A program made the translations under genes and the position numbers. The notes beneath the pieces are model-generated. The model saw only the letters and a program-made list of their open reading frames with translations, was not told the origin of the DNA and did no database searches. A stretch of 64,000 nt of DNA from Antedon mediterranea (taxonomy: Eukaryota > Animalia > Echinodermata): contig NC_092676.1 in assembly GCF_964355755.1 (NCBI RefSeq), forward strand, positions 22,090,871-22,154,870, given 5' to 3'. Shown one piece after another: positions 11,741 to 64,000 of this stretch. Each line of letters opens with the position of its first letter. Positions within the stretch are counted from its first letter, which is position 1.

Positions 11741-11810
11741 ATGTCTATCTTTCAAACCCTCACGCTGTTGGTACCATTGCTGTTTTCCAGCTGTTGTGTT
11801 TCCGTGAATG
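11741..11810 (+). CDS. LRR gene exon 1: signal peptide MSIFQTLTLLVPLLFSSCCVSVN
   Basis: ATG, hydrophobic core, donor G|GTAAGA (phase 1) that is in frame with the next exon. Confidence 0.8.
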
Positions 11811-14800
11811 GTAAGATTGATTTACCTTATTTTATTTTCAAACCGTTCAAATAAAGTGTCATTTATAACATATAGGGGCCTATAAAGTATAGGTTGCTGG
11901 CTTATGATATTGGTCAAACATTGAAGGTGTCTGTCCGTCCTCCTTGGTCATTTCTCTAAATTAAACGTTGCATTTCAATGTCACAGAATGTTCACATATC
12001 ACACCTATAACAAACGCTGCAAACAATAGTTCTTTATTTGCTAAGGAAGCCTATTGTTTTATTATTTACACATTACGTAGCTACACGAGGACTCTTGTTC
12101 AGTTTATAACATAAATGATGTCACTATTAATTGACTCAGGGCCTCTGTTGGCCTATTCAATTACAAAAACATTTATTTACGTTCAAAAGACAACGAGTTA
12201 TAAAAACAATAATGACAAGAGATAATTGAGAAAATGGACGAAAGCAATTGGAGAGTATTTTAAAAAAAAAATTACATATTTTTGAAAAATATACCATTCT
12301 AGTTTTATTATCCCGAATACTGAACGTGTCCATTGTAGGTCCTATACCATAATTGTAGTTAAAAATAAGTTTAATCTCGAGGTGCAATAGAAAACATTAT
12401 ACAGTATTTATAAAACAATTAAATTGTAATTCCAATATACGCTTAACGCTAAACTGGATATTAATTAATGTGTGCTAAAATGTGTATTCTATCCATGGAG
12501 GTAAAAATAAATACCTCCATGTTCTATCTATATCAAATTCACACACATTTCATATTGTAGGCCTACTGTAACGCTGAAAGCAATTACATACAATTGAAAG
12601 TAATTGTTTTAAAGCATTATCGTTGTTGTACTGCACACCGTATTTGTTTTTATTTCTGTATTTGTTTCTGTGTACCAATTTTCAGAAACTGGCTGCTGGC
12701 TGGTTTTGTATGTTTTATACCGTAGGCTTAACAATAAATAAATAACATATACATTTTACTTTTTAATATTTACTTCTTTACTTTTATTATTATATTTGTT
12801 TTAACAGAAGCAAGTGTATGCCCAAAAGGTTGCATTTGTAACTATGAGAGATATCGGGGCGCTCCTCCTAGTACTTGGTGTTATAATTGGAATACTACCA
12901 TACATACACAACTTGTATTGTACAATGAGGATAATCCTATACAAATATTGTAAGTAGTAGTTTTTGTTTTTGTATTTTAACATTAATATTTGTCTATCAC
13001 GAACAAATAACTTTCCCAGTGAGGGATAATAAATTATTTTTTTAAGTATATGATGAATAAGTATAATAAATAATTGTATCTTAATGCTCTTGAGCGTAAG
13101 TAAGAACCATTTCCTCTCCCATAAGCTCGATTCTGGAGGTCCACCAAAGCAAGAACTATAACGACTATAAAACCCAGCCAACATAACTCCCCTAATTAAC
13201 AAAAATGTAAAATAACCATTTATACATGTAAATAACTCAATCCAGAATAATTTCTGTAGACCAAAATCTAAGAATTCAATTGATAAAGGAACAGAAACAA
13301 AAATGGTGATGTCAATCAAGTGATTGGTATGAGAATTAAAATGTTAAAACTATCTTATAATATATTTTGACATCATTCAAGTACAAGAGCTGACATACCC
13401 ATGCAGTATATTGTTATGCTTTACCAATAAATACAAAATACGATATATTTGTTACCCCTCAGGCGCTGTATAGAACGGCCTGGCCAGAACGCGATTTTTT
13501 TTCGTACAGAATTTGGAGACCCCTTATGTTAAAGATAGCCGAAGTACTTCCTAAATATAACTCAACCTAACCCTTTAAATAATCTCTCTCACTATAAAGT
13601 AAAAAGAATTTACTGATGGGATTCGAACCCCATTCGACAACACAGACGGCTTGACAGAAAGGGTTTGCATTAGTGAATTGTAGATTAATTCTTACGTCAC
13701 ACCTTATTGATATGACTAATGAATATTCATGTTTATTTTGTGATGTTTCATGTACGAAAAGAAACATCGCGGCCGGAACCATAGGTACATGACGGGATCA
13801 TGACGGGACAACATTTTTACCAATATCTTATCTTATTTAAACATATCCACATGTGTGTAAATTAAATACGAAAGACCACAACAGACACACACGCAACAGT
13901 AATTTATAATATATAATGTGGTGTTAATAATAGTATATTATATTAAACATTAAATAGGGTAAAATTAGAACTTTAAAACCAGTGTGAATTCATCCAGCAT
14001 AAATAAATTAAGCTATTCATTTTGTCAGATAAAATTAGTAACAATTTAAAAAAATTACAGTAATATTATTATGTTAAATCATTAATTAATATTTCCATAA
14101 GATAGAAAATAGAACTTAAAAAAACTAGTGTAAATTCATCTGCATAAATGAATTTTAATATTTTTTTTTCAGATTAATTATAAGGAATCTTATTTTTTTT
14201 AATAGTATTTATTATTAGTAATAGGCCTATTAAATAATATTTTAGTTCATGCTTACAAATCTCTTAATTATTGTTTAGTAATTTTGTATGAGAATGAAAA
14301 TGTAAAGATTGTATTATTTTACCATGAAATTCAAGTGTAAGAGTTTTTATCTATGTTATACTTGCAATCTATTAATTAATTGTTGTCTGTGTATGAAAGT
14401 TAGAATGTTTAAATTATCTTGATTTACCATTCAGTATATATTGACATCATTTTAAGTTCAATAGTTATACCCATACAGTATAAAGTATAATGTAGTATTA
14501 CTAATGTAAATAATTTAAACATTTGAGGAAACAGAAAGACAGAATTATTGATATTGTAATTACTCCGTGTGCTTATTCTGTGCATTCTTTTTCTATTTGA
14601 GGTACGTGGATGGTAATCAAATAAGTACATTGCCAGCCAATACATTTGCTGGTTTGACAGCATTGAAATATCTGTAAGTGTATTGCTTTGTTTATGTATA
14701 TTGTCACAAAATGTATTTATGAATTTGCTTTTCTTTCATCCAATCTACATGGTAGATGGATGAAGATATTGTTTTTAACCACGTGACTATGTGGCGTAGG

Positions 14801-17800
14801 TTTGTTGTTTATGTATAATTTGTTATTGAGCTATGGAGAATTACTTCTTTTTTTTCCGAAATAAAAGATGAATGAATGAATGAATATTAATTAAGAGCAT
14901 GGTGTCTGTAAAAATCAAAGATTTGGTGGCAGATGTAAAAAAATGGATTTCTCTCAAATTTTTACCATGAATAGACATTTCAATAAAAAGCATAGGCTAT
15001 CTACAAAATTCATTTTAATTTTTAGCCTCCGTTGCCATGACAACGGTCAATTATCCAAATTTTGTTGTTTGTGCAATTTTTTCACAGATTTTCTATAGTG
15101 AAAAAGTACAAACTTGTATACTTATTTTAACCAAAAATACTTACAGTATACAGTTTTTGTTTATAGCAGTGTAAACAACATGTATTGAGTTCCATTTAAT
15201 GTAGAAAAAAAATAAATTACAAAATGGAGTTTGGTTGATACCATTATTTTAAAAAGGGGTGTTTTTAAAAAATATTTTTTTTATAAAAGTATACCTCATA
15301 AACGTACCTATAACTTCCAAAGTGGTGTTTTTAAATCAATGAGGTTTTTTAATTTGATAGTCAATAGGTTTGTCAACAATAATCACGAAAAAAACACTGG
15401 GGTAAATTTCGTACATAGGTTTTGTGTTGCCAGGAAAATACGAAAAATACAAAAAATATAACAAAGTATCAACAAACAAAACACATGAAACACAATTTAA
15501 ATATGGCTAATCCAATAATAAAATGTATATGTGGCTTGTCATAATGCTACTAGAGTCATACGAATAGTTTAGATAAAATAGGAGAATGTGTTGCCAGGTT
15601 TATTTCAATTAATTGCCAGAAAAACAGTATTTTGCATTGAAATATTTAGTTGATGGAAAATAATGTTAAACTTGGAAATAATTGCGTCAATGGTTTTTAT
15701 AAATTTTTTAATCTATTTTGTGTAAAGAGATACAGAAAGACCTCCCAAAAAATCTGACCTTGTAAATAGATCATTTGAGGTCAAAAGGGGTCAGCATGCA
15801 AAACAGGACAGGTCCCCACTTTACTACAACTATTAATGTTTGATCAAAATTTACAAGATAGTTCATAACATTCTCAACAATTTTCATATTTTACCTATAG
15901 TGTTACCCTAGCAACCATTTCTATGTGTAACTAAGGAAAGTAATTTTTAAAAAAACGTAAAAAATGGCGTTTTTATAAATACAAAGAATTGATTGCATTT
16001 GTAATTTTTCTCAATTTTACTTCTACTGCATTCCATTAATGAAAAACTTGACCTTGTAAATTCATTCATTTTGAGGTCAACATTTTACCATAGTAACTGT
16101 TTCTATGCGAAAATTTCAAAAAAATAAGGGTTTTTCATAAATACAAAACATTTTTTCTACATAGTTTTACATTTCTACTTTTTGCCAAATTTACTTTAAA
16201 TACTGAATCCTAATAATCTCAGAAAGAAAGTCTTGACGAATCTGAATAAAGGTAACAAATGATATTTAAATATGGAGTTTCATGAAAAAAAAAATTTTAC
16301 ATATTGAGGTCAAATGACATCAACATTTTACCTATAGTGTATTGTAGCAACTGTTACGTTTCTATACGTAACTAAGTACAATATTTTTAATATGGGGTTT
16401 CATGACTACAAACAATAGATTACATAGCTTTACTACCTTTTCCCAAATTTACTTATCTACTGAATCCCAGAAAATGTCTGACCTTGTGAAAGGGTCATTT
16501 GTTGGGTCAAGTTATGTCAAAATGTATTATTTATGTTATCTTACAGTAGAACCTGTTTCTATTAGGCTATGGGGCATGAGCCAAAAAGAGGCCTAGAAAA
16601 CGAATTTCGTGATCTCCTAACGGGGGGGAGGAAGATATTCACACAGTTTATAGTTAATAATTAGATTAACACAAATTCAGCCGGTCCCGCTTTCAAAAGT
16701 TACGCAATAAGTGTAATTTTAGGTGTAAAAAAATCGAATTTCTCAACATAAAGAAATACATAGAAATAGCGCCCTCTATTTTGTATATTTTCTGTTAGTG
16801 TTAGTACTGGATAAAATACAATCGTTCCATTGGAATAACTTATACTGTATCTTTCTTTCACATTTAACATGCAATATTTTTATCATAATTTTGAGATTAA
16901 TATTGTAGTCCTTGTAAGAAATGTATCTGTTAGTAAACCTTAATTAATATTTATTTAAGCACACTGAAAAGAAGATGCATTTTCAATCTTTATAATTCAT
17001 GACTATGCTGTCACAAAATATTTATTAATATTATCTCTCCTATATAATTGCAACTTTTTGTTTTCATTGGATGCATAACATAGAATTATAATCAATTAGT
17101 AATAAATCAAATGTTGCATTATTGTTTTCATTGTAGATGTATAACATAGAATTATAATCAATTAGTAACAAATAAATGAAATTATTACAGCAAAGTTTCT
17201 TATAATACTCCTGTTTCTTAATATTGCTTATCATCTCATGGGTTCTTTATTTTATACTTTCTCATGGTTCATCCGTTATGTTACAAAATAGTTAAGTTAC
17301 AAAATAGTTTAATATAAATTTACATTTTATACTAATAGGCATATTAATGTATTGTAAGCATCAAAGTAGAAAGTTTCTTATAATACTCCTGTGTCTTAAT
17401 ATCGCTTATCATCTCATGGTTCATCCATTACGTTACAAAATAGTTAAGTTACAAAATAGTTTAATATAAATTTACATTTTATAGGCATATTAATGTATTG
17501 TAAGCATCAAAGTAGAAAGTTTCTTATAATACTCCTGTGTCTTAATATTGCTTATCACCTCATGGGTTCTTTATTTATACTTTCTCATGGTTCATCCTTT
17601 ACGTTACAAAATAGTTAAGTTACAAAATAGTTTAATATAAATTTACATATTATAGGCCTATTACATTAAAATCATGTAGACCAAGTAAAATGAACATTTG
17701 TAAACCATAAATTACACTTAAACTACACTAAAAAGTTCTTCCTGCTCAAACTCTTCCTCATCATCGCTATCATCTCCATCAATTTCAAACATCTGATGTA

Positions 17801-23800: not shown

Positions 23801-26800
23801 TTTCAAATCAGGGCTTCAATATTTGTTATGTAGCATTAACATACCTGAGTATATCATTGACTTTTGATTGGTTCTATTTTGGGGAGGGGAAAGTGGTAGA
23901 TCCAGGACTTTTAAATAGTTAGGGGGTTGAAGGCGAGGGTCTAAAAACTTAACTTTATGTCCTATCTTTTGCATTGCAATTTTTAACTTGGGGTGGGTGG
24001 GGGCTTGGAGAAAGGGGGAGGGGGTGGGATTGAGGAGTTTGAATCCGTCTATTCATTGGGGCGATAGTAGCGGCAGTGTGGGTGGTGCTTGAATGCATGC
24101 ATTTAACACTCTATAGTGGATGATCGACCAAAGTGTTGCAGTTTATCTTTTTGTGGTTATAGTCGGGGTAGGGGGGGAGGGGTGGTAGTCGAAAGTGGTG
24201 GTGGATGGGCATGTGGGATCTGCTTAGGTTAGCAAATAAAAGAAGTAAACAAATGAAAGAGGAGCTTCAAAATAAGAGAGGAGTAATCTGTTGCAAAGAT
24301 TAAAATTCACAACGATCTGATAATTTATTCAAATTTCCAGAGGATATAACCTATAAAATGACATTAAAACTGGGAATTACAGAATCTATAATTAAAAATT
24401 AATTTTTTTTCTCACAACACAACTAGAACTATATAAAACATTAAGAATTTTTCTGACCAATGAGTTTCAAATCAAATAATCAAAGAAAATAAAATGTTTT
24501 TACTAATATACCATGTTTTTTTGTTATAAAAATGCCTATGTTTCTCGCAACACTGCTTGTAGATTTTAAATTTACCCCAGTATTTTATTTTAGAAATCAA
24601 TTATTAAACATTAGAACTACCTATTTGTAATAAATCAGCTAAAAAAAAACACCACTTTGGGCATTATGGTGAAGTAAAGTTTAGTTGCATTGAACAATTT
24701 AAAAAAAGTGAAAAACACCCCTTTTTAAATAAATGGTATCTCCCAAAGTATGAAGTAAAAAAAAATTAAAAAATTTGAAACAGGTACACAATGCATTGTT
24801 ATTATGCATACACTAATTATTTTTTTATAATTAAATGAACAAAACAAAAATATCGTTCATCAAAGTAGTACCAATATCCATTTTAAAAAACCTTAAAAAA
24901 GGACAAAATTTGTCAAAAACACAAATTTGGCCGTTGCCATGGAAATATACGTGTGAAATAAAAAATACTTCATATTTGATTTCTCTCAACACATATATAG
25001 CCATGTGCAAAATTTGAAAGAAATCCATTTTTTTGAGTCTGCCACTCTTTTTGATATTTCTTCTTTGATTCTTACAGACAATGGCTCTTAATATGTCAAT
25101 AGGTTAAAATTAGAACGTTAAAACCAGTGTGAATTCATCCAGCATAAATAAATTACGTTATTCATTTTTGTCAGAAACAGTATTAACAATTGAAAATTAT
25201 TACAGTATTATTATTGTGTTAATTCATATTTCCATAGGATAAAAAATAGGACTTTAAAAACAGGTGTAAATTAATCCAGTAAATTACTGAATTATGATAT
25301 TACTTCGATATTAACAATTAAGGAGTTTTATTTTTTTTAATAATTTGTATTAATAATATTAAATAATTGTGAAACTAATATCTCTTTCAAACTTTCAATT
25401 ACTTAATTAATTGTAGCAATTTTGTATAAGAAATAAAATGTTAAAATTATCTTAATTTAACATAGTATATAATTATGTTGACATCATTCAAGAAATAGAG
25501 TTGATACTAAACCCATGCAGTATAACTATAATGTTACTAATGTAGATAATTTATACATTTGAGGAAACAGAGAGACACAAATAATTGATATTGTAATTAC
25601 TCCATGCTTATTCTGTGCATTCTTTTTCTATTTGAGGTACTTGTCTTATAATCAAATAAGTACATTGTCAGCCAATGCATTTGTTGGTTTGACAGCATTG
25701 GAAGAACTGTAAGTGTATTGCTTTTTTACATATTTACAAGTTTGTCTTTATTTACTAATTATATTACACATTAATAACAATTATTATTTTTATAGGTTAA
25801 AAATAGAACTTTAAAAACAGAATTTTAATATAATTTTTTCAGGTTAATTATAAGGAGTCTTATTTTTTCTCAAATAGTATTTATTATTAGTATATTAAAT
25901 TATATTTTAAATTATTATCTTGTCCATGCTTGCAATCACTGAATTATTGTTTAGTAATTTTGTATGAGAATGAAAATGTAAAGATTGTATTATTTTATCA
26001 TTAAATTCAAGTGTAAGAGTTTTTATCTATGTTATACTTGCAATCTATTAATTAATTGTTGTCTGTGTATGAAAGTTAGAATGTTTAAATTATCTTAATT
26101 TACCATTCAGTATATATTGACATCATTTTAAGTTCAATAGTTATACCCATACAGTATAAAGTATAATGTAGTATTACTAATGTAAATAATTTAAACATTT
26201 GAGGATTCAAACAGAAAGACAGAATTATTGATATTGTAATTACTCCGTGTGCTTATTCTGTGCATTCTTTTTCTATTGGAGGCACTTGAATGGTAATCAA
26301 ATAAGTACATTGCCAGCCAATGCATTTGCTGGTTTGACAGCATTGAAATATCTGTAAGTGTATTGCTTTGTTTATGTATATTGTCACAAAATGTATTTAT
26401 GAATTTGCTTTTCCTTCATCCAATCTACATGGTAGATGGATGAAGATATTGTTTTTAACCACCTGACTATGTGGCGTAGGTTTTTTTTTTATTATAATCT
26501 ATATATTATACATTGTTGTTGTTTATATATAATTTGTTATTGAGTTAGGGAGAATTACTTTTTTTTTCCGAAATAAAAGATGAATGAATGAATGAATATT
26601 AATTAATATTTCAATAGGTTAAAATTAGAAAGTTAAAACTACGTGTGAATTCATCCAGCATAAATAAATTACGTTATTCATTTTTGTCAGAAACAGTATT
26701 AACAATTGAAAATTATTACAGTATTATTATTGTGTTAATTCATATTTCTATAGGATAAAAAATAGGACTTTAAAAACAGGTGTAAATTAATCCAGTAAAT

Positions 26801-29800
26801 GACTGAATTATGATATTACTTCGATATTAACAATTAAGGAGTTTTATTTTTTTTAATAATTTATATTAATAATATTAAATAATTGTGAAACTAATATCTC
26901 TTTCAAACTTTCCATTACTTAATTAATTGTAGCAATTTTGTATGAGAAATAAAATGTTAAAATTATCTTAATTTAACATAGTATATTATTATGTTGACAT
27001 TTGAGGAAACAGAGAGACACAATTGATATTGTAATTACTCCATGCTTATTCTGTGCATTCTTTTTCTATTTGAGGTCCTTGTATGGTAATCAAATAAGTA
27101 CATTGCCAGCCAATACATTTGCTAATTTGACAGCATTGGAAACTCTGTAAGTGTATTGCTTTTTTACATATTTACAAGTTTGTCTTTATTTACTAATTAT
27201 ATTACACATTAATAATTAATAACAATTATTATTTTTATAGGTTAAAAATAGAACTTTAAAAACAGAATTTTAATATTATTTTTTCAGGTTAATTATAAGG
27301 AGTCTTATTTTTTTTCAAATAGTATTTATTATTAGTATATTAAATTATATTTTAAACTATTATCGTGTCCATGCTTGCAAACACTTAATTATTGCTTAGT
27401 AATTTTGTATGAGAATGAAAATGTAAAACCTGCCCAGTGGGCACAGAACATAATTTCAACGTTGAATCAACGTTGAAATATAGTTTATTTGTTGAAATCA
27501 TGTTGTCAGCGTTTTTCAAATGTTGAATCAACGTTGAAATAACATTTTTTCCCTAACTATTTTTTTTACGTTTAGTAATAAACATTGAATCAACGTTGAA
27601 ATAACATTTTCTTTTTAACTAGTAATTTATGTTAATTAATAAATGTTGGTTTAACGTTGAAATAACATTGTCTTTCTAACAAATGTTTTACGTTAATTTA
27701 TCAATGTTGATCCAACGTTGAAATAACATTGTTTTTAAAACAAATGTTTTACGTTAATTTATAAATGTTGATTCAACGTTGAAATAACATTGTATTTTTA
27801 ACTAGAAATTTACGTTAATTTATCAATGTTGATCCAACGTTAAAATAACATTGTCCTTCTAACTAGTAATTTACGTTAATTTATCAATGTTGATTTAACG
27901 TTGAAATAACATTGTCTTTCTAACTAGTAATTTACGTTAATTTGTCAATGTTGATCCAACGTTGAAATAACATTGTATTTTTAACTAGAAATTTACGTTA
28001 ATTTATCAATGTTGATCCAACGTTAAAATCACATTGTATTTTTAACTCGAAATTTACGTTAATTTATCAATGTTGATCCAAAGTTGAAATAACATTGTAT
28101 TTTTAACTAGTAATTTACGTTAATTTATCAATGTTGATCCAACGTTGAAATAACATTGTATTTTTAACTAGTAATTTACGTTAATTTATCAATGTTGATC
28201 CAACGTTGAAATAACAATGTATTTTAAACTAGAAATTTACGTTAATTTATTAATGTTGATCCAACGTTGAAATAACATTGTATTTTTAACTAGAAATTTA
28301 CGTTACTTTATGAATGTTAATCCAACGTTGAAATAACATTGTCTTTTTAACTAGTAATTTAAGTTAATTTATCATTGTTGATCCAACGTTGAAATAACAT
28401 TGTCTTTCTAACTAGTAATTTACGTTAATTTATCAATGTTGATCCAACGTTAAAATCACATAGTATTTTTAACTAGAAATTTACGTTAATTTATCAATGT
28501 TGATCCAACGTTGAAATAACATTGTATTTTTAACTAGTAATTTACGTTAATTTATCAATGTTGATCCAACGTTAAAATCACATAGTATTTTTAACTAGAA
28601 ATTTACGTTAATTTATCAATGTTGATCCAACGTTGAAATAACATTGTATTTTAACTAGTAATTTACGTTAATTTATCAATGTTGATCCAACCTTGAAATA
28701 ACATTGTATTTTTAATTAATAATTTACGTTAATTTATCAATGTTGATCCAACGTTGAAATAACATTGTCTTTTTAACTAGTAATTTAAGTTAATTTATCA
28801 TTGTTGATCCAACGTTGAAATAACATTGTCTTTCTAACTAGTAATTTACGTTAATTTATCAATGTTGATCCAACGTTAAAATCACATAGTATTTTTAACT
28901 AGAAATTTACGTTAATTTATCAATGTTGATCCAACGTTGAAATAACATTGTATTTTTAACTAGTAATTTACGTTAATTTATCAATGTTGATCCAACGTTA
29001 AAATCACATAGTATTTTTAACTAGAAATTTACGTTAATTTATCAATGTTGATCCAACGTTGAAATAACATTGTATTTTAACTAGTAATTTACGTTAATTT
29101 ATCAATGTTGATCCAACCTTGAAATAACATTGTATTTTTAATTAATAATTTACGTTAATTTATCAATGTTGATCCAACGTTGAAATAACATTGTATTTTT
29201 AACTAGAAATTTACGTGAATTTATTAATGTTGATCCAACGTTGAAATAACATTGTATTTTTAACTAGAAATTTACGTTAATTTATTAATGTTGATCCAAC
29301 GTTGAAATAACATTGTCTTTCTAACTAGTAATTTACGTTGATTTATCAATGTTGATACAACGTTGAAATAACATTGTCTTTATATCTAGAAATTTACGTT
29401 AATTTATCAATGTTGATCCAACGTTGAAATAACATTGTATTTTTAACAAGAAATTTACATTAATTTATCAATGTTGATCCAACGTTGCAATAACATTGTA
29501 TTTTTAACTAGAAATTTACGTTAATTTATCAATGTTGATCCAACGTTGAAATAACATTGTCTTTCTAACTAGTAATTTACGTTGATTTATCAATGTTGAT
29601 CCAACGTTGAAATAACATTGTATTTCTAACTAGTAATTTTTTTCAAACAGTTATTATTTTTGTTTTTCAATGTTATTCCAACGTTATTTTAACGTTGAAA
29701 TCCAGTTGTCATTTTCAAATGACATGTTTTCAACGTTGAAAAACTCTTGAAATTATGTTGTTTTTTCAAACAATTATTATTTTTTTTTCAATGTTAATTA

Positions 29801-32800: not shown

Positions 32801-35800
32801 GATGATTTGATAACACCTGATTAAATGTTATTTTATGTTTTTATAGAAATTAAAGATTAGTAAGATATACAGTATTTATAAAATGTCTCTATTGATGGAT
32901 TCTGCGATGTAACAGTAACTTTACTACTAACTACTTTAAAACCGTTGATTCAAATTGGATATAGTAATTCAACAAATCAAATTTCAACGTTAAATCTATG
33001 TTTAAATTTACGTTGATGCAAATTTTCATTTCAACTTAATTATTACGTTGTTTCAACGTTAATAATGTCAACATTGAATCAACATTGATAATTTCAACGT
33101 AGACATTTTTACGTTGTTTCAACGTTGATAATCTATGTTGAATCAACGTTGACATTTTTGTTGAGGCAAACTTTCATTTTCAACGTTATTTTAACGTTAC
33201 CTATTTTAACGTTGTTTCAACGTTGATAATTTCTATGTTGATTCAACGTTGACATTTACGTTGAGGCAAACTTTCATTTTCAACCATTTTTTCAACGTTA
33301 TTTCAACGTTACCTATTTTAACGTTGTTTCAACGTTGATAATTTCTATGTTGATTCAACGTTGACATTTAAGTTGAGGCAAACTTTCATTTTCAACCATT
33401 TTTTCAACGTTATTTCAACGTTACTTATTTTAACGTTGTTTCAACGTTGATAGTTTCTATGTTGATTCAACGTTGACATTTACGTTGAGGCAAACTTTCA
33501 TTTTCAACCATTTTTTCAACGTTATTTCAACGTTACTTATTATAACGTTGTTTCAACGTTGATAATTTCTATGTTGATTCAACGTTGACATTTACGTTGA
33601 GGCAAACTTTCATTTTCAACCACTTTTTCAACGTTATTTCAACGTTTGCAGATAACGTTGAATTAACGTTAATTCAACCAATTTTTGCCCACTGGGTGTA
33701 TTATTTTACCATGAAATTCAAGTGTAAGAGTTTTTATCTATGTTATACTTGCAATCTATTAATTAATTGTTGTCTGTTTATGAAAGTTAGAATGTTTAAA
33801 TTATCTTGATTTACCATTCAGTATATATTGACATCATTTTAAGTTCAATAGTTATACCCATACAGTATAAAGTATAATGTAGTATTACTAATGTAAATAA
33901 TTTAAACATTTGAGGATTCAAACAGAAAGACAGAATTATTGATATTGTAATTACTCCGTGTGCTTATTCTGTGCATTCTTTTTCTATTTGAGGTACTTGT
34001 CTGATAATCAAATAAGTACATTGCCAGCCAATGCATTTGCTGGTTTGACAGCATTGAAAAGATTGTAAGTGTATTGCTTTGTTTATGTATATTGTCACAA
34101 AATGTATTTATGAATTTGCTTTTCCTTCATCCAAGCTACATGGTAGATGGATGAAGATATTGTTTTTAACCACGTGACTATGTGGCTTAGGTTTTTTTTT
34201 CTATATATTATATATTGTTGTTGTTTATATATAATTTGTTATTGAGCTATGGAGAATTACTTTTTTTTTCGAAATAAAAGATGAATGAATGAATGAATAT
34301 TGATTAATATTTCAATAGGTTAAAATTAGAACGTTAAAACCAGTCTGAATTCATCCAGCATAAATAAATTACGCTATTCACTTTTGTCAGAAACAGTATT
34401 AACAATTGAAAATTATTACAGTATTATTATTGTGTTAATTCATATTTAAAAACAGGTGTAAATTAATCCAGTAAATGACTGAATTATGATATTACTTCGA
34501 TATTAACAATTAAGGAGTTTTATTTTTTTTAATAATTTGTATTAATAATATTAAATAATTGTGAAACTAATATCTCTTTCAAACTTTCCATTACTTAATT
34601 AATTGTAGCAATTTTGTATGAGAAATAAAATGTTAAAATTATCTTAATTTAAAGATGTATTGTCCCTTTGACTAATTACAAAAAAATAAAAAATAACACA
34701 TTTCGAAAAAAAAGTGGGTCATTTTGAACTATCATAATAGTTATTAACTATTACCAAAAATTTGTTGAAAAAAAAATCATTTAACTGAAATACAGACGTT
34801 TTTTTGTTAAAAAAATAACTTTGACTTCCATTCAAAGTTTTCGATCAAAACATATCCCATAATGAAACGTGCTTGTTTGGCTACTCTGTATATGCATAAT
34901 CATAAAACTTCCTCACGATCTGTGTGAAAATACCTTCTCAACAGTGACGAGTTGTAAACAATCCTAATTAGCATATGCATAATGCATACTCGTAGATTGA
35001 AATCTTTGTTTACTTTCGCTCGCGACGATTTTCCAGACGAAATGTAATCAAACTAATTTACCTGTTAATTATGTAAAATTGTTGCTTTTGGCTCGAATTT
35101 TCGACTTAAAGTGAACAACTTTAATATTATTTTGATATGGCCAATTTAGATTTAGAATATTTTGACCTTCATTTTTTGTGTTTCAAGGGACAATACATCT
35201 TTAACATAGTATATAATTATGTTGACATCATTCAAGTAATAGAGTTGATACTAAACCCATGCAGTATAACTATAATGTTACTAATGTAGATAATTTATAC
35301 ATTTGAGGAAACAGAGAGACACAAATAATTGATATTGTAATTACTCCATGCTTATTCTGTGCATTCTTTTTCTATTTGAGGTACTTGTATGATAATCAAA
35401 TAAGTACATTGTCAGCCAATGCATTTGTTGGTTTGACAGCATTGGAAGAACTGTAAGTGTATTGCTTTTTTACATATTTACAAGTTTGTCTTTATTTACT
35501 AATTATATTACACATTAATAACAATTATTATTTTTATAGGTTAAAAATAGAACTTTAAAAACAGAATTTTAATATTATTTTTTCAGGTTAATTATAAGGA
35601 GTCTTATTTTTTCTCAAATAGTATTTATTATTAGTATATTAAATTATATTTTAAACTATTATCTTGTCCATGCTTGCAATCACTGAATTATTGTTTAGTA
35701 ATTTTGTATGAGAATGAAAATGTAAAACCTGTATTATTTTACCATGAAATTCAAGTTTAAGAGTTATTATCTATGTTATACTTGCAATCTATTAATTAAT

Positions 35801-38800
35801 TGTTGTCTGTGTATGAAAGTTAGAATGTTTAAATTATCTTGATTTACCATTCAGTATATATTGACATCATTTTAAGTTCAATAGTTATACCCATACAGTA
35901 TAAAGTATAATGTAGTATTACTAATGTAAATAATTTAAACATTTGAGGATTCAAACAGAAAGACAAAATAATTTATATTGTAATTACTCCGTGTGCTTAT
36001 TCTGTGCATTCTTTTTCTATTTGAGGTACTTGTTTTATAATCAAATAAGTACATTGCCAGCCAATGCATTTGCTGGTTTGACAGCATTGAAAAGACTGTA
36101 AGTGTATTGCTTTGTTTATGTATATTGTCACAAAATGTATTTATATATTGTTGTTGTTTATGTATAATTTGTTATTGAGCTATGGAGAATTACTTTTTTT
36201 TTCGGAAATAAAAGATGAATGAATGAATGAATATTAATTAATATTTCAATAGGTTAAAATTAGAACGTTAAAACCAGTCTGAATTCATCCAGCATAAATA
36301 ATTACGCTATTCATTTTTGTCAGAAACAGTATTAACAATTGAAAATTATTACAGTATTATTATTGTGTTAATTCATATTTCTATAGGATAAAAAATAGGA
36401 CTCTAAAAACAGGTGTAAATTAATCCAGTAAATGACTGAATTATGATATTACTTCGATATTAACAATTAAGGAGTTTTATTTTTTTTTAATAATTTGTAT
36501 TAATAATATTAAATAATTGTGAAACTAATATCTCTTTCAAACTTTCAATTACTTAATTAATTGTAGCAATTTTGTATGAGAAATAAAATGTTAAAATTAT
36601 CTTAATTTAACATAGTATATAATTATGTTGACATCATTCAAGTAATAGAGTTGATACTAAACCCATGCAGTATAACTATAATGTTACTAATGTAGATAAT
36701 TTATACATTTGAGGAAACAGAGAGACACAAATAATTGATATTGTAATTACTCCATGCTTATTCTGTGCATTCTTTTTCTATTTGAGGTACTTGTCTGATA
36801 ATCAAATAAGTACATTGTCAGCCAATGCATTTGCTAATTTGACAGCATTGGAAGAACTGTAAGTGTATTGCTTTTTTACATATTTACAAGTTTGTCTTTA
36901 TTTACTAATTATATTACACATTAATAACAATTATTATTTTTATAGGTTAAAAATAGAACTTTAAAAACAGAATTTTAATATTATTTTTTCAGGTTAATTA
37001 TAAGGAGTCTTATTTTTTCTCAAATAGTATTTATTATTAGTATATTAAATTACATTTTAAACTATTATCTTGTCCATGCTTGCAATCACTTAATTATTGT
37101 TTAGTAATTTTGTATGAGAATGAAAATGTAAAACCTGTATTATTTTACCATGAAATTCAAGTGTAAGAGTTTTTATCTATGTTATACTTGCAATCTATTA
37201 ATTAATTGTTGTCTGTGTATGAAAGTTAGAATGTTTAAATTATCTTGATTTACCATTCAGTATATATTGACATCATTTTAAGTTCAATAGTTATACCCAT
37301 ACAGTATAAAGTATAATGTAGTATTACTAATGTAAATAATTTAAACATTTGAGGATTCAAACAGAAAGACAGAATTATTGATATTGTAATTACTCCATGT
37401 GCTTATTCTGTGCATTCTTTTTCTATTTGAGGTCCTTGTCTGATAATCAAATAAGTACATTGCCAGCCAATGCATTTGCTGGTTTGACAGCATTGAAAAG
37501 ACTGTAAGTGTATTGCTTTGTTTATGTATATTGTCACAAAATGTATTTATATATTGTTGTTGTTTATGTATAATTTGTTATTGAGCTATGGAGAATTACT
37601 TTTTTTTTTTCGAAATAAAAGATGAATGAATATTAATTAATATTTTAAAAGGTTAAAATTAGAACTTTCAAACCAGTGTGAATTCATCCAGCATAAATAA
37701 ATTACGCTATTCATTTTTTCAGATAAAATTACTAACAATTTAAAATTATTACAGGAATATTATTGTGTTAATTCATTAATTGATATTTCCATAGGATAAC
37801 AAATAGAATTTTAAAAACAAGTGTAAATTCATCTAGCATGAATGAATTTTAATATTATTTTTTTTTTTTCAGATTAATTATAAGGAATCTTATTTTTTTT
37901 TAATAGTATTTTTGTTATTAGTAATATTAAATAATATTTTAAACTATTATCTTGTTCATGCATGCAATCTCTTAATTATTGTTTAGTGATTTTGTATGAG
38001 AATGAAAATATAATGACTGTATTATTTTACCATGTGATTCAAGTTTACTCGCAATCTATTAATTAATATTGTTGTAGTATGTGTATGCAACTTAGAATGT
38101 TCAAATTATCTATCATTTAAGTACAAGAGTTGATACTAAACCCCATGCAGTATAACTATAATGTTACTAATGTAGATAATTTATACATTTGACGAAACAG
38201 AGAGACACAAATAATTGATATTGTAATTACTCCATGCTTATGCTGTGCATTCTTTTTCTATTTGAGGTACTTGTCTGATAATCAAATAAGTACATTGCCA
38301 GCCAATACATTTGCTAATTTGACAGCATTGGAAGAACTGTAAGTGTATTGCTTTTTTACATATTTACAAGTTTGTCTTATTTACACAATAATAACAATTA
38401 TTATTTTTATAGGTTAAAAATAGAACTTTAAAAACAGAATTTTAATATAATTTTTTCAGGTTAATTATAAGGAATCTTATTTTTTTTCAAATAGTATTTA
38501 TTATTAGTATATTAAATTATATTTTAAACTATTATCTTGTTCATGCATGCAATCACTGAATTATTGTTTAGTAATTTTGTATGAGAATGAAAATGTAAAG
38601 ATTGTATTATTTTACTATGATTTTCAAGTGTAAGAGTTTTTATCTATTTTATACTTGCAATCTATTAATTAATTGTTGTCTGTGTATGAAAGTTAGAATG
38701 TTTAAATTATCTTGATTTACCATTCAGTATATATTGACATCATTTTAAGTTCAATAGTTATACCCATACAGTATAAAGTATAATGTAGTATTACTAATGT

Positions 38801-41800
38801 AAATAATTTAAACAATTGAGGAAACAGAGAGACACAAATAATTGATATTGTAATTACTCCGTGTGCTTACTCTGTGCATTCTTTTTCTATTAAAGGTACT
38901 TGTATGATAATCAAATAAGTACATTGCCAGCCAATGCATTTGCTGGTTTGACAGCATTGAAATGGCTGTAAGTGTATTGCTTTGTTTATGTATATTTACA
39001 ATTTTATCTTAATTTACTTTTATATTACATTAATATAAATTAATATTTTAAAAGGTTAAAATTAGAACTTTCAAACCAGTGTGAATTCATCCAGCATAAA
39101 TAAATTACGCTTTTCATTTTGTCGGATACAAGTATTAACAATTTTAATATATTACAGGAATATTATTATGTTAAATCATTAATTGATATTTCCATAGGAT
39201 AAAAAATAGAATTTTAAAAACAAGTGTAAATTCATCTAGCATGAATGAATTTTAATATTTGTTTTTCAGATTAATTATAAGAAATCTTATTTTTTTTTAA
39301 TAGTATTTATTATTAGTAATAGGCCTATTAAATAATATTTTAAACTATTATCTTGTTCATTCTTACAAATCTCTTAATTATTGTTTAGTAATTTTGTATG
39401 AGAATGAAAATTTAATGACTGTATTATTCTACTATGATTTTCAAGTGTAAGAGTTTTTATCTATGTTATACTTGCAATCTATTAATTAATTGTTGTCTGT
39501 GTATGAAAGTTAGAATGTTTAAATTATCTTGATTTACCATTCAGTATATTGACATCATTTTAAGTTCAATAGTTATACCCATACAGTATAAAGTATAATG
39601 TAGTATTACTAATGTAAATAATTTAAACAATTGAGGAAACAGAAAGACAGAAATTATTGATATTGTATTTACTCCATGTGCTTACTCTGTGCATTCTTTT
39701 TCTATTGGAGGTACTTGGATGGTAATCAAATAAGTACATTGCCAGCCAATACATTTGCTGGTTTGACAGCATTGAAATATCTGTAAGTGTATTGCTTTGT
39801 TTATGTATATTGTCACAAAATGTATTTATGAATTTGCTTTTCCTTCATCCAATCTACATGGTAGATGGATGAAGATATTGTTTTTAATCACGTGACTATG
39901 TGGCGTAGGTTTTTTTAAATATATCTATATATATATATTGTTGTTGTTTATATATAATTTGTTATTGAGCTATGGAGAATTACTTCTTTTTCCGGAATAA
40001 AAGATGAATGAATGAATGAATATTGATTAATATTGCAATAGGTTAAAATTAGAACTTTAAAACCAGTGTGAATTCATCCAGCATTAATAAATTACGCTAT
40101 TCATTTTTGTCAGAAACAGTATTAACAATTGAAAATTATTACAGTATTGTTATTGTGTTAATTCATATTTCCATAGAATAAAAAATAGGACTTTAAAAAC
40201 AGGTGTACATTAATCCAGTAAATGACTGAATTATGATATTACTTCGATATTAACAATTAAGGAGTTTTATTTTTTTAAATAATTTGTATTAATAATATTA
40301 AATAATTATGAAACTAATATCTCTTTCAAACTTTCAATTACTTAATTAATTGTAGCAATGTTGTATGAGAAATAAAATGTTAAAATTATCTTAATTTAAC
40401 ATAGTATATATGTTGACATCATTCAAGTAATAAAGTTGACACTAAACCCATGCAGTATAACTATAATGTTACTAATGTAGATAATTTATACATTTGAGGA
40501 AACAGAGAGACACAAACAATTGATATTGTAATTACTTCATGCTTATTCTGTGCATTCTTTTTCTATTTGAGGTACTTGTATGAAAATCAAATAACTACAT
40601 TGCCAGCCAATACATTTGCTAATTTGACAACATTGGAAGAACTGTAAGTGTATTGCTTTTTTACATATTTACAAGTTTGTCTTTATTTACTAATTATATT
40701 ACACATTAATAACAATTATTATTTTTATAGGTTAAAAATAGAACTTTAAAAACAGAATTTTTAATATTATTTTTTCAGGTTAATTATAAGGAGTCTTATT
40801 TTTTTTCAAATAGTATTTATTATTAGTATATTAAATTATATTTTAAACTATTATCTTGTCCATGCTTGAAATCACTTAATTATTGTTTAGTAGTTTTGTA
40901 TGAGAATGAAAATGTAAAGATTGTATTATTTTACCATGAAATTCAAGTGTAAGAGTTTTTATCTATGTTATACTTGCAATCTATTAATTAATTGTTGTCT
41001 GTGTATGAAAGTTAGAATGTTTAAATTATCTTGATTTACCATTCAGTATATATTGACATCATTTTAAGTTCAATAGTTATACCCATACAGTATAAAGTAT
41101 AATGTAGTATTACTAATGTAAATAATTTAAACATTTGAGGAAACAGAAAGACACAAATAATTGATATTGTAATTACTCCATGTGCTTACTCTGTGCATTC
41201 TTTTTCTATTAAAGGTACTTGTATGATAATCAAATAAGTACATTGCCAGCCAATGCATTTGCTGGTTTGACAGCATTGAAATGGCTGTAAGTGTATTTCT
41301 TTGTTTATGTATATTTACAATTTTATCTTAATTTACTTTTATATTACATTAATATAAATTAATATTTCAAAAGGTTAAAATTAGAACTTTCAAACCAGTG
41401 TGAATTCATCCAGCATAAATAAATTAGGCTTTTCATTTTGTCAGATACAAGTATTAAAAATGTTATAATATTACAATAATATTATTGTGTTAATTCATTA
41501 ATTGATATTTCCATAGGATAAAAAATAGATTTTTAAAAACAAGAATAAATTCATCTAGCATGAATGAATTTTAATATTTGTTTTTCAGATTAATTATAAG
41601 GAATCTTATTTTTTTTAAATAGTATTTATTATTAGTAATATTAAATAATATTTTAAACTATTATCTTGTTCATGCATGCAATCTCTTAATTATTGTTTAG
41701 TGATTTTGTATGAGAATGAAAATTTAATGACTGTATTATTTTACCATGTGATTCTAGTTTACTTGCAATCTATTAATTAATATTGTTGTAGTATGTGTAT

Positions 41801-44800
41801 GCAAATTAGAATGTTCACATTATCTATCATTTAAGTACAAGAGTTGATACTAAACCCCATGCAGTATAACTATAATATTACTAATGTAGATAATTTATAC
41901 ATTTGACGAAACAGAGAGACACAAATAATTGATATTGTAATTACTCCATGCTTATGCTGTGCATTCTTTTTCTATTGGAGGTACTTGAATGATAATCAAA
42001 TAAGTACATTGCCAGCCAATGCATTTGCTGGTTTGACAGCATTGATACGCCTGTAAGTGTATTGCTTTGTCTACTTATATTTACAATTTTATCTTAATTT
42101 ACTATTTTATTATGCTAATATTAATTAATTTTTCAATAGGTTAAAATTAGGACTTTCAAACCAGTGTGAATTCATCCAGCATAAATAAATTAGGCTTTTC
42201 ATTTTGTCTGATACAAGTATTAACAATTTAAAAATATTGCATGTGTTTTTGTGTTAATTCATTAATTAATATTTCTATAGGATAAAAAAATACTAGAATT
42301 TAAAACAAAAGTGTAAATTCATCCAGCATGAATGAATTTTAATTTTTTTTTTTCAGATTAATTATAAGGAATCTTAATTTTTTTAAATAGTATTTATTAT
42401 TAGTAATATTAAATAATATTTTATTAAACTAATATCTTGTTCATGCTTGCAATCACTTAATTATTGTGTTTTATAATAATTGTGTATGAGAATGAAATTG
42501 TAAGACCTGTATTAGTTTACAATGAGATTCAAGAGTTTATCTATGTTATACTTGCAATATATTAATTAATTGTTGTCTGTGTATGAAAGTTAGAATGTTT
42601 AAATTATCTTGATTTACCATTTAGTATATATTGACATCATTTAAGTAGGCCTACAATAGCTGAAACTATAATACGCATGCAGTATAACTATGATGTAGTT
42701 ACTAATGTAAATAATCTAAAAATTTGAGGAAACAGAGACACAAATAATTGATTATTGTCTGCTTATTCTGTGCATTCTTTTTTTATTTGAGGTCCTTGTC
42801 TGATAATCAAATAAGTACATTGCCAGCCAATGCATTTGGTGATTTGACAGCATTGGAAAAACTGTGTATTGTTTTGTCTATTTATATTTACAATTTTATC
42901 TTAGTTTACTGTTATATTACATTAATATTAATTAATATTTCAATAGGTTAAAATTAGAAATTTAGACCATACCAGTCGTTGTCTGCGTTAGGGATGGTCG
43001 TATTCCTAGTAGCTTTCTTAGGTAAGTTTTCGGATATATCGCATTTCACGGGAGCTTTGAAAGAAACTTAGTTTTTTTTATAATAAATCTGAAAATAACA
43101 GTCTTGAAACTTCCAAAATGGTGTCAAAAGCAAGAAAAAATAGTAAACACTATATTCTAGGAATTATTTATAATAAAGTGACGTCACTAATAATTACTTT
43201 CAGGTGTTGAAATTAATAAATAGTGATATTTCTTGAGTTAATAATCGAAATTCGCTGATACTTGGTAAATAGCTTGTATACGGTGATAGGGTTGCCAGGG
43301 CATTTAAAGCTTTCGCCCAATTTGTTCGTATCGAATATGAACGACCCTGTTTCAATGTGCCCTTGTTTTTTCTTGTTTCAAAGTGCTCCGGTCTCCCCTA
43401 CTGAAATACGCACAGTAAACAAAAATGATACAATTAATATATTTTATGACACAATGTCCTGTGTTTTTTCATTATTTAGTCATTTTATGACTTAACATTT
43501 TTATTATTAATAATATTTTATCAGTATTGTTAGATCCATATTATTTGATGATTAATTTACTAGCATTACTATATTATATATATATATATATGTTTATTAA
43601 GCATATACTTATTGTTGTACCGGGATCCGGGTACATTGAAACACTTAAGTAGTTAATTTAATTAGCCTCCTCAACGAAAATTACCAAAGTTTTTTTTTTC
43701 TTTTTGACTTTAGTAATACTGAATGACACCCATTACTTGCTTTTGACACAATTTTGGAAGTTTCAAGACTAATATTTTCAGATTTATTATAAAAAAACTA
43801 AATTTCTTTCAAAGCTCCCGTGAAATGCGATATATCCGAAAACTTACCTAAGAAAGCTACTAGGAATACGACCATCCCTAACGCAGACAACGACTGGTAT
43901 GGTCGACGACGCGTCTTTAATCAAAGCAGAGAAATCTGCAACAATTATAACGGTGATAGAGGGTGTGTAAAGACAAACTGCAATGTAGCTCACATTTGTT
44001 TGTTATGTAAAGGCCACTCACAGTCAGCGTACAGGTGGTCAAAAAACGGACAAGGGCCTCAAGTGATAGGGGCCACTGCAAAACGTTAAACGAAACCGCT
44101 AACTTTAAAACCAAAGCTGGTTTGGTGTTGGTTTTGTTGGCAAACCAAAATCCACCTTTATTATTCAATTATCCATCCAATTCTCAACTTTAGTTCTGTT
44201 ATTTTTATTTCTATTTCGAAAACTCAGTCTACGCGCATTCAGCGTCTGCATAACCGTTTTTTACGCTACATCAGCCACAACCAGAATCCTGATTTTCATT
44301 TCCATGTCCAATCTGCTGAGTCCCGTAGAACCTTTTTTGATCTTGTTTTTTTTTGTATAAATGTCTTAATTCTTTATTTGACTGTAACTTAGTTAGTCAT
44401 TTTTATCTTAGAGTCCCTAGTCATCGTCTTAAAAGAAATCCTACTTTTCATATTCCTGTAGAGTAAATGTTTTTAAAAATGGTTTTATTAGTAGATTAAG
44501 TCAAACTTATAATTCTTTTACTTTAAGAAACCCTCAGTTAGATATCTTTATTAATAATTTCCGTAAGTTTCGCAACATTGTTAGTAGTTTAGTTTAATAT
44601 TTTGTTTTTGTATGTGTACGTGTTTGTCTGTGTTCCCTCCTGTAAGTGGTGAACCATGAGTTCACTGTTGGTTGGGAAATGAAATAAATAAATAAACTAC
44701 GACACAACAATAACTACCTCTATAAATATTGAACAGCTACATAAGCATATGGCACTGTGTCCAAACACGTATCTAAAGAACTAGTGTTAGACGGGTTGGT

Positions 44801-47535: not shown

Positions 47536-47660
47536 AATATTGAACAAGGATAATTCAGGTAACAATAACAATGTTAATAAAGTCGAAACCATTCTCATCA
47601 CTAACTTTGCCGCTGATGGCAATAATCATCATCATTTCAAGTGCAGATTTACTGAGGACG
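47501..47660 (+). pseudogene. Frameshifted remnant of GPCR TM1-TM2
   Basis: Out-of-frame GIIICIVVRL...KVETILITNFAAD, then in another frame MAIIIIISSADL. No further TM segments are recognisable. Confidence 0.6.
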
Positions 47661-63953: not shown

Positions 63954-64000
63954 CTAAAAAATTAGAAAATGATATGTTAGTTATGTAGAATTCTAGTTAG

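Follow-up and report, generated by a model that had tools for sequence, protein, structure and literature searches.

Along a 64,000-nucleotide stretch of the Antedon mediterranea genome, hereafter the window, exactly 16 LRR units succeed each other on the forward strand between positions 14602 and 42863, each being 72 nt long, in phase 2, flanked by AG, open and free of indels. As their variation gathers at the x positions of the pattern L-x1-x2-L-x3-L-x4-x5-N, this locus raises a twofold question, i.e., whether selection on a binding face has shaped the array, and what kind of gene carries it. The initial annotation had viewed the units as cassettes reminiscent of VLRs, with diversifying selection acting on the ligand-binding concave face despite homogenised introns.

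A predicted spliced gene with one repeat per exon

The array units are in-frame spliceosomal exons within one complete germline gene (Table 1). With AG/GT exon ends, a single open frame of 546 codons encompasses a signal peptide, a cap, 18 LRR exons and a hinge, the hydropathy maximum of the whole gene model being found at residue 2. The cassette framing inherited from VLRs is not supported, since the units are spliced exons of a complete gene possessing its own signal peptide and cap, a GRL101-like hinge and a broken 7TM region. Because every LRR has a 72-nt phase-2 exon to itself, the gain, loss or skipping of an exon leaves the frame intact. The acceptors are purine-AG in all 16 array exons (14 GAG and 2 AAG) vs CAG or TAG in four single exons; GAG acceptors are rare and weak. 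At unit 16, the donor reads GTGTAT in place of GTAAGT, four bases having been lost.

Table 1. Features of the LRR gene and of its downstream region (positions in the window)
Feature	Position	Strand	Remarks
First coding exon	11741..11810	+	ATG, hydrophobic signal-peptide-like stretch, phase-1 donor
LRR N-terminal cap exon, Cys-rich (CPxxCxC)	12808..12949	+	Phase 1 to 2; motif read by eye, no Pfam match
LRR exon unit 1, class A	14602..14673	+	
LRR exon unit 2, class B	25637..25708	+	
LRR exon unit 3, class A	26282..26353	+	
LRR exon unit 4, class B	27075..27146	+	
LRR exon unit 5, class A	33993..34064	+	Bears the sole silent scaffold change
LRR exon unit 6, class B	35381..35452	+	
LRR exon unit 7, class A	36026..36097	+	
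LRR exon unit 8, class B	36787..36858	+	
LRR exon unit 9, class A	37432..37503	+	
LRR exon unit 10, class B	38267..38338	+	
LRR exon unit 11, class A	38896..38967	+	Same sequence as unit 14
LRR exon unit 12, class A	39711..39782	+	
LRR exon unit 13, class B	40572..40643	+	
LRR exon unit 14, class A	41215..41286	+	
LRR exon unit 15	41981..42052	+	Divergent, flanks mixed
LRR exon unit 16	42792..42863	+	Donor weakened by loss of 4 nt; skipping possible, frame unaffected
LRR exon 17, outside array	45701..45775	+	75 nt, phase 2-2; LRR_8 E=0.0034, below curated cut-off
LRR exon 18, outside array	46373..46444	+	72 nt, phase 2-2; gapless coverage in organism B
Putative GRL101/LGR-C-like hinge (CC-x7-C-x-P ... 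SCEDxM)	47406..47535	+	Stop at 47533 after deletion and frameshift in TM1; by-eye match to PMC8286064 supplement rows
Putative decayed 7TM remnant (TM1 end, TM2, extracellular loop 1)	47498..47703	+	Three frames, in-frame stops; by-eye match, no profile match
Hydrophobic stretch after acceptor-like site	48862..48970	+	Candidate exon, open in the phase needed by any LRR exon; no database match

Two organisms carry related exons at numerous further loci; the 243 records in X1, with a core-to-flank depth of about 35-41, likewise imply many such exons elsewhere. Splicing with a 72-nt period is seen in paralogues, at one joint of an RNA-like run that was chosen by species label and covers the present copy by single contigs only, at a depth below 8 and in part intronic; a search with the 3' region listed no RNA data set containing it. 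In one paralogue contig of the RNA-like run, an LRR continues directly into a hinge-like Y-S-D-L-F motif.

Variation among the units and tests of selection

The residues originally listed at the five x positions proved exact, namely K/E/I at x1, Y/E/T/R/W/K at x2, Y/H/S at x3, D/S/N/Y/F at x4 and G/Y/D/E at x5, and the lone silent change reported outside these codons, TT|G in unit 5, was confirmed; a second synonymous pair, AGA in three units vs CGC in unit 15, sits inside x2. By minimum-step count, 31 steps separate the units, 1.5 of them synonymous and 29.5 replacement, the latter splitting into 20.5 within x codons and 9 elsewhere, where the toggles are V/L, S/T, P/S, T/A, A/V/G, G/N/D and A/T. 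The description of this variation as almost purely non-synonymous is borne out across all steps (P=0.003 for at most 1 of 31 and P=0.015 for at most 2 of 31), but the scaffold by itself shows no significant shortage of silent changes (1/10, P=0.24).

The 15 nt of the five x codons gather 19 of the 29 variant alleles, leaving 10 for the other 57 nt (P=2.5e-7), and the excess persists when the most variable codon is dropped (11 alleles in the remaining x sites vs 10, P=2.8e-4) or when the four concave codons are compared with the other exposed codons (17 alleles in 12 sites vs 10 in 36, P=3.4e-5). Single codons delimit the peaks sharply: between x3 and x4, the Leu codon is unchanged in 15/16 units. 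Values of pi reach 0.19 and 0.44 in the two x blocks, as against 0.029 at the acceptor, 0.044 in the core and 0.009 at the donor, the most uniform part of the unit consisting of the exon scaffold together with ~25 nt on the acceptor side and 14 nt on the donor side. Over the 15 spliced junctions, 13 distinct five-residue faces are formed, in which Y, D, S and E dominate. All four gametes are present at 16/28 informative site pairs and the exons are therefore patchworks. At x1, the K/E choice tracks the downstream intron class of the A/B dimer, so this position is mainly a marker of dimer class. A placement of the variation on the concave face fits the enrichment at x codons, but x1 and some 30% of the replacements (9 of ~30 steps) lie off the pattern.

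Among the class-A units (n=8), divergence amounts to 28.8% at x-codon sites, 2.0% in introns and 1.6% in the scaffold, which puts the x codons 14-fold above the class-A introns (P=5e-9); the outcome that the initial annotation had named as refuting selection, x diversity at or below the intronic level, was therefore not observed. The flanking introns, assumed at first to be homogenised, are so within a class (2.0%) but not between A and B, which differ by 13.8% at -130..-4. There is a hint, no more, of stronger homogenisation in the exon than in the introns: at 14 synonymous sites, about two silent A-vs-B differences would be expected and about none is seen. In 7,702 neutral gene-conversion simulations, a recombination-proof null, the observed x-codon share was never reached. 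Using home-made code with relative branch lengths fixed and an unstable omega (13 to 212), of which only the site list is used, M2a was significant over M1a on 4/4 trees; it picked x2 and x4 on 4/4 trees, x3 and x5 on 3/4, and also the convex-side codon 17 on 3/4, while x1 was not robustly selected. That no x codon is a stop carries little weight (P about 0.11). An edge gradient as the cause of the x peaks was ruled out, the flanks being quiet on either side.

Diversifying selection on x2-x5 is well supported, because no simulation matches the pattern and because x codons so exceed introns in divergence; the selection claimed at the outset for the beta-strand x codons is accordingly supported, by allele enrichment, simulations and site model alike. 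From the LxxLxLxxNxL register and textbook LRR geometry (PMC4561518), x2-x5 are predicted to be coplanar on the concave face. A stand-in bacterial LRR protein, which is not the protein of this gene, was folded without alignment and gave 12-residue strands at a pTM of 0.44; this fold has no bearing on the coplanarity of x2-x5.

The hinge and the putative decayed 7TM region

Downstream of the repeats, the gene appears to derive from a GRL101/LGR-C-like GPCR. The hinge and TM2 motifs resemble, by eye and with no E-value, the GRL101-like rows of Acanthaster, Amphiura, Holothuria and Schizocardium, and the CC-x7-C-x-P spacing is common to the hinge and to the Amphiura and Schizocardium rows. As for LGR type C membership, the short hinge motif is recognisable by eye before TM1, whereas an intact rhodopsin-type 7TM and an LDLa module are lacking from what was found: the 7TM region has suffered at least three frame changes and two stops, and a motif scan in all six frames of the window, relying on a simple pattern that could miss a split or diverged module, returned no LDLa. 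Compared with GRL101/LGR type C receptors as far as described in the available parts of the sources (PMC8286064, PMC4561518, PMC4079206), the gene has in common the short CC...C and SCEDxM hinge, the TM2 start, one exon per repeat and LP/AF-type repeats, but differs in that no LDLa was found and by 18 LRR exons instead of about 10, the broken 7TM, hypervariable repeats and many related loci, when one GRL101 orthologue is given per ambulacrarian species studied (PMC8286064, in the part available). A molluscan parallel, the Biomphalaria SudRes2 GRL101-like cluster, similarly contains expanded genes, some of which are truncated or lack domains, and the hyperdiverse region around it has been associated with resistance to parasites; unlike here, its genes are described as having a 7TM along with CTL and LDL domains, and diversity lies between genes and haplotypes rather than within a one-repeat exon array (PMC12297450, in the portion accessible).

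Profile and structure searches were silent on this region. The hinge had no match in Pfam, PDB or among protein homologues and no usable one in Atlas; PDB gave none for the TM2 piece or the 48761-48967 frame and one irrelevant match for the TM1-TM2 frame; no 7tm_1 match appeared in the remnant frames, Pfam was blank for 9/10 pieces searched, and a literature search on the hinge motif brought irrelevant papers only. A unit-9 query, 17 residues of which are intron-derived, yielded 21 candidates, 8 of them generic LRR proteins apparently of prokaryotic or environmental origin and none a family member. The hydrophobic stretch at the far end was the top of 2 matches among 285 acceptor-frame pairs and may represent a further 7TM remnant or possibly a single-pass anchor exon. 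A donor-like site within the hinge (47437) leads to no hydrophobic phase-0 exon.

The unique stretch orthologous in organism B differs by 7.8% (136/1,734 nt) and is colinear across 47363-47974, and a contig from a second individual is gapless over 47409-47558. Several replacement differences separate haplotypes in the hinge; together with the damaged unit 16 donor, they have the look of a decaying gene and count against the explanation favoured below.

Competing readings of the locus

The explanation we modestly favour is that of one germline spliced LRR gene, likely a former GRL101-like (LGR type C) GPCR minus its 7TM, with 16 duplicated exons likely under diversifying selection at predicted concave codons, its predicted product being a variable recognition protein, either secreted or single-pass, and by analogy likely immune in function. 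The pattern of the array shows that a two-exon A-B unit was duplicated in tandem, transposons interrupting it later. Unequal crossing-over and gene conversion would then have kept scaffold and splice flanks near-identical while reshuffling strand variants among units, with selection retaining or favouring new residues at x2-x5, as the statistics support. Decay of the 7TM probably preceded the latest turnover of the array, an order suggested by the divergence of class-A introns (2.0%) as against organism B (7.8%) and by 16/16 open exons, in which case the repeat domain would have evolved on without signalling. With the membrane part of the receptor lost, the product would be a variable, likely secreted recognition protein, binding ligand as a soluble or anchored horseshoe, e.g., an opsonin, an agglutinin or a decoy for intact paralogues. 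The ~30% of replacements off the concave strand, with the model-picked codon 17, speak against this explanation.

A doubtful but serious contender is a recent pseudogene, namely one defunct gene of a large GPCR family, whose x diversity was selected earlier, as a receptor, or imported by gene conversion from live paralogues. The broken 7TM, the damaged unit-16 donor and the drifting hinge would fit, as would the many related exons available as donors, and the x2 alleles are 2-3 bases apart, as for imported or old alleles. Yet array turnover looks younger than the species split and the 7TM damage older; dead-gene simulations showed the pattern in 0/4,021 kept, import lying outside those simulations; and the silent variant dominating paralogues at the Asn codon beside x5 (108,296/129,901 depth in X1) occurs in 0/16 array units, which argues against distant paralogues as donors. 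That the pattern is an artefact or a mutational hot spot, through repeat assembly errors or because conversion tracts have a neutral effect at their edges, is largely refuted and now hardly credible: x codons do lie at both exon ends, the repeat is young and recombination inflates tree-based tests, but the flanks are quiet on both sides of the peaks, the interleaved Leu codons are constant, no simulation reaches the pattern, and the same codon, x4, shows several alternative letters in the DNA runs of organisms A and B.

The two remaining alternatives concern the source of diversity. A combinatorially spliced receptor, ROCO- or Dscam-like, with the same selected exons and diversity arising mainly from exon skipping within each animal, seems rather improbable. 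Every array exon is symmetrical (phase 2-2), the purine-AG acceptors set all 16 units apart, and splice variants are known from brown-algal ROCO genes of the same layout, as available parts of the source describe them (PMC11378527). Against this, paralogue loose ends also show AAG, so that a purine-AG acceptor may be a harmless family trait, and no exon-skipping read was seen among short-read contigs from one RNA-like run, shallow at this gene and of a kind that cannot reveal skipping. Somatic assembly of the VLR type, in which immune cells would copy the units, as donor cassettes, into an incomplete gene, is very improbable. It would account for the 24-residue repeats, for the VLR chains among the 7 PDB matches of the unit profile and for variable residues sitting where VLRs have theirs on the strand (PMC3900441, in its accessible part). 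In agnathans, however, the germline VLR gene is incomplete and flanking donor cassettes supply the replacement for its intervening sequence, as far as the consulted portion of PMC12264053 goes, while here the units carry splice sites and lie in frame inside a complete gene; neither a CP/LRRCT/stalk end with GPI or TM nor any LRRCT-stalk was found; and 0/19 x-codon alleles are C>T or G>A from the major base of the column, i.e., there is no deaminase-like spectrum. The 24-residue LRRV-type repeats with variable concave positions are present, although common to many LRR families and not diagnostic.

Precedents and significance

With agnathan VLRs and the amphioxus VLR-like Bf66946, as portrayed in the available parts of PMC3900441, PMC12264053 and PMC4731796, the gene shares 24-residue LRRs, variable concave residues and the prospect of a secreted or anchored recognition protein; unlike the somatically assembled agnathan VLRs, with their CP-LRRCT-stalk end, its diversity is germline and exon-borne and its C-terminus GPCR-derived. 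The closest precedent is the brown-algal ROCO exon arrays, for which the accessible text of PMC11378527 (with Zambounis 2012 as cited there) describes 72-bp phase-2 one-LRR exons in tandem (16 exons in SJ02233), four positively selected concave-face sites and a proposed immune recognition. Those are ROC-COR GTPases of algae with splice variants, whereas the present gene is animal, with a signal peptide, an LGR-C-like C-terminus and, by inspection of the gene model and downstream frames, no ROC-COR, so the shared layout is convergent.

Concave-face selection in LRRs is textbook knowledge and arrays of 72-bp one-repeat exons with selected strand sites are known in brown-algal ROCOs. What would be new, if true, is the same design in the animal GRL101-like GPCR lineage, which in echinoderms and hemichordates is generally regarded as a single-copy hormone receptor; no comparable animal gene was found in a literature search whose reach excluded most subscription journals. 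A bolder conjecture, of low probability as a whole, is that a GRL101-like family turned into a large variable LRR repertoire, its weak-acceptor exons duplicated, converted, selected and combinatorially spliced, this copy being a soluble or single-pass antibody-like molecule, which would make it an independent germline-and-splicing route to VLR-like binders. As to the favoured explanation, this copy seems to have gone on diversifying after losing its membrane part and, if expressed, would offer a tractable variable invertebrate recognition protein in which a GPCR ectodomain has become an antibody-like molecule. Within one gene, selection likely separates four codons while conversion would homogenise their surroundings.

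Exon array and gene anatomy

A fuzzy search with the first unit recovered 16 copies of a 72-nt segment, comprising 15 distinct sequences, each copy with AG directly before it and GT directly after it. A unit specifies 23 amino acids and, across a phase-2 intron, shares one further Leu codon; every unit is therefore one exon for a 24-residue leucine-rich repeat (LRR). Joined by coordinates, the exons (see table) form a single open frame of 546 codons. The gene is not a VLR: its units are in-frame exons of a complete gene, while in the germline a VLR gene lacks part of its sequence, which donor cassettes supply (PMC12264053). Array introns measure 557-789 nt, save three enlarged by insertions, and intron sequence sorts the units into two alternating classes, A and B, so that duplication mostly proceeded by dimers of two exons. 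At acceptor position -3, all 16 array exons carry a purine (14 GAG, 2 AAG), unlike the four single exons, where the acceptor is CAG or TAG; AAG acceptors are also present at paralogue loose ends in public runs.

Features of the gene and its surroundings in the window
Position	Strand	Feature	Remarks
2660-6480	+	Large DNA-transposon-like frames	Broken; Cys-rich motif at end
11741-11810		Signal-peptide exon	Upstream of array
12808-12949		Cys-rich cap exon	Upstream of array
14602-42863	+	Array of units 1-16	All on this strand
14890-25090		10-kb insertion in intron 1	Bounded by TTAA and imperfect inverted repeats; ends presumably piggyBac-like
about 17800-19800	-	Nested, broken transposon-like frames	Within 10-kb insertion
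27430-33695		6.3-kb insertion splitting intron 4	Inverted CCCAGTGGG ends
27519-29639		61-bp tandem array, 34.8 copies	Within 6.3-kb insertion
33177-33646		112-bp array	Within 6.3-kb insertion
34648-35205		Short TTAA-flanked inverted-repeat element in intron 5	Similar ends twice more, about 57610-57960 and 61620-61980
42918-43906		Long inverted-repeat element, arms about 400 nt	Directly 3' of unit 16
about 44700-45300		Broken reverse-transcriptase-like sequence (by eye)	Past long inverted-repeat element
45701-45775		LRR exon unrelated to units (exon 17)	Downstream of array
46373-46444		LRR exon unrelated to units	Downstream of array
from 47406		Hinge exon	Downstream of array; stop at 47533
49390-63960	-	Neighbouring multi-exon gene	Long acidic low-complexity exons (54098-54883; 56214-56804, with 24-bp repeat)
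about 58600-59970		Broken non-LTR retrotransposon	Interrupts neighbouring gene

The hinge is short and reads CC-x7-C-x-P, then SCED-x-M; spread over the remaining two frames are the last part of TM1, TM2 in two pieces (its start, NKV..LITN.A.D, and the remainder) and an extracellular loop containing two TGA stops. Weaker possible traces of later helices lie at 48690-49230. By eye, the hinge and TM motifs match the GRL101-like sequences that supplement file 3 of PMC8286064 gives for Acanthaster, Amphiura, Holothuria and Schizocardium. Since no database queried gave an E-value for any piece of the hinge or the seven-helix GPCR region (7TM), calling the gene GRL101-derived is a motif-level inference. 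A six-frame scan of the window found no LDLa motif and, as the 7TM and LDLa tests both failed, the gene is not filed as GRL101.

Distribution of variation among units

The residue lists of the initial annotation for the variable codons of L-x1-x2-L-x3-L-x4-x5-N proved exact when the 16 units were re-checked. By minimum-step count, 31 changes comprise 1.5 synonymous and 29.5 replacement, the five x codons accounting for 20.5 of the replacements and other codons for 9; variation does concentrate at x codons as claimed, but about 30% of replacements fall off the strand, and the near-absence of silent change in the scaffold, i.e., the rest of the unit exon, is real (1 of 10 silent) but alone not significant (P=0.24). 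Column alleles, the counts of which recombination cannot inflate, number 19 in 15 x sites vs. 10 in 57 other sites (P=2.5e-7), or 11 vs. 10 without the most variable codon (P=2.8e-4). Because the x positions are preset by the LRR motif, this enrichment is no post hoc pick. Eight class-A units have alignable upstream introns; pairs of these units differ on average by 0.288 at x codons, by 0.016 in the scaffold and by 0.020 in the intron, which upholds the expected excess over intron background (P=5e-9). The respective values are 0.133, 0.082 and 0.020 in the class-B trio, where the scaffold also exceeds the intron (P=0.01), and 0.467, 0.053 and 0.026 in the remaining pair; units 4, 6 and 16, with deleted, interrupted or divergent flanks, stand outside these comparisons. 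The supposed intron homogenisation holds within class (2.0%) but not between classes (13.8% near the acceptor). Codon x1, at the flank of the LRR strand, is a class marker, class A carrying K and class B carrying E. The predicted coplanarity of the x codons follows from the LxxLxLxxNxL register, the strand of which lines the concave face (PMC4561518), and from VLRC, where the entropy mapping cited from PMC3900441 supports concave-face placement of variable positions.

Four gametes occur in 16 of 28 informative site pairs within the exon, hence tree-based tests are inflated. M2a vs. M1a is significant on all four trees (2dL 27-106). The test picks x2 and x4 on all of them; x3, x5 and convex codon 17 are each picked three times, and x1 once, weakly. 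Greater weight was given to a forward simulation in which 16 copies evolved with conversion tracts averaging 6, 20 or 100 nt, under regimes either fully neutral or with buried residues fixed; among 9,159 runs, 7,702 had 22-36 alleles, and none of the latter reached 19 of 29 alleles at x codons (maximum share 0.55). The diversity profile along exon and flanks shows that the peaks are no edge gradient: x3-x5 (0.19) and x1-x2 (0.44) stand out from the acceptor (0.029), the core (0.044) and the donor, taken as its first 14 bases (0.009). Nor does the latitude of exposed residues to vary account for the pattern, given the excess at concave sites (17 alleles in 12) vs. other exposed sites (10 in 36; P=3.4e-5).

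Related sequences in public sequencing runs

The comparison covered four of eight public runs, each aligned to two stretches of the window. A 120-nt stretch around unit 9 aligned to 243, 258 and 225 records in three DNA-like runs of two source organisms, A and B, many only over exon core and donor, their flanks being unrelated. The exon core has 35-41 times the summed depth of the acceptor flank, which itself lies at 33-40 times single-copy depth in both organisms; these figures, a measure of depth and not of copy number, indicate that organism B has an array of comparable size and that many related exons exist elsewhere. In the same runs, codon x4 shows 6 to 8 alternative letters over its three sites, and most paralogue depth carries, in the Asn codon beside x5, a silent variant seen in 0 of 16 units. 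An RNA-like run contains one joint back 64 nt with 8 letters between, i.e., a 72-nt period, and loose ends where one LRR continues into the next or, once, into a motif resembling the hinge; such joints and ends are attributed to spliced paralogues and not to the present gene.

Over 45500-48300, one organism B contig runs colinear with the window, differing at 136 of 1,734 nt (7.8%), and shows no large insertion after the hinge. For this stretch, 40 of 187 substitution rows and 12 of 95 indel rows were covered, and no organism B frameshift is among them; the A-B differences covered at 45701-45717, in exon 17, hint at changes in x3, x4 and the residue after Asn. A contig from a second study, under organism A's species label, has no gaps over 47409-47558, which spans the first frameshift and stop. 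Seven hinge substitutions at 47475-47526 are common to organism B and a half-depth contig of X1, an organism A run, so one organism A haplotype, or close paralogue, would match organism B there.

Proposed mechanism and known designs

Symmetrical exons permit tandem duplication with the frame kept, and unequal crossing-over with conversion would keep scaffold and splice flanks alike and reassort strand halves; at a junction, the face takes x1-x2 from one exon and x3-x5 from the next, with 13 different faces over 15 junctions. Diversity at x2-x5 (n=64 residues, including Tyr 22, Asp 11, Ser 9 and Glu 6) is likely maintained by selection. Diversification seemingly went on after 7TM loss, since the youngest array turnover (2.0%) seems more recent than the separation of A and B (7.8%), while decay of the 7TM is far advanced. 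The alternative of a pseudogene, its signature inherited or imported, draws on the damaged donor of unit 16 and the drifting hinge and is considered less likely. The gene model has no hydrophobic segment past the signal peptide, and the product would therefore be secreted; a single-pass product may arise instead by splicing of an LRR exon to the acceptor-like site at 48862. In hydrophobicity, the phase-2 frame of that site ranks first among the window's 285 acceptor-frame pairs, a property explained equally well as a 7TM remnant.

The exon-array design is already known. Brown-algal ROCO genes, as described in PMC11378527, share with the present gene 72-bp phase-2 LRR exons and selected concave sites (four in ROCO) and have splice variants; a phase-2 layout in vertebrate gonadotropin receptors is noted there too. 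In the literature searched, with candidates mostly compared by description, no expanded, LDLa-less, 7TM-less GRL101-derived animal gene of this design was found. Given this pattern of selection and the analogues described in PMC11378527, PMC12297450 and PMC4731796, we infer that the gene may serve an immune role.
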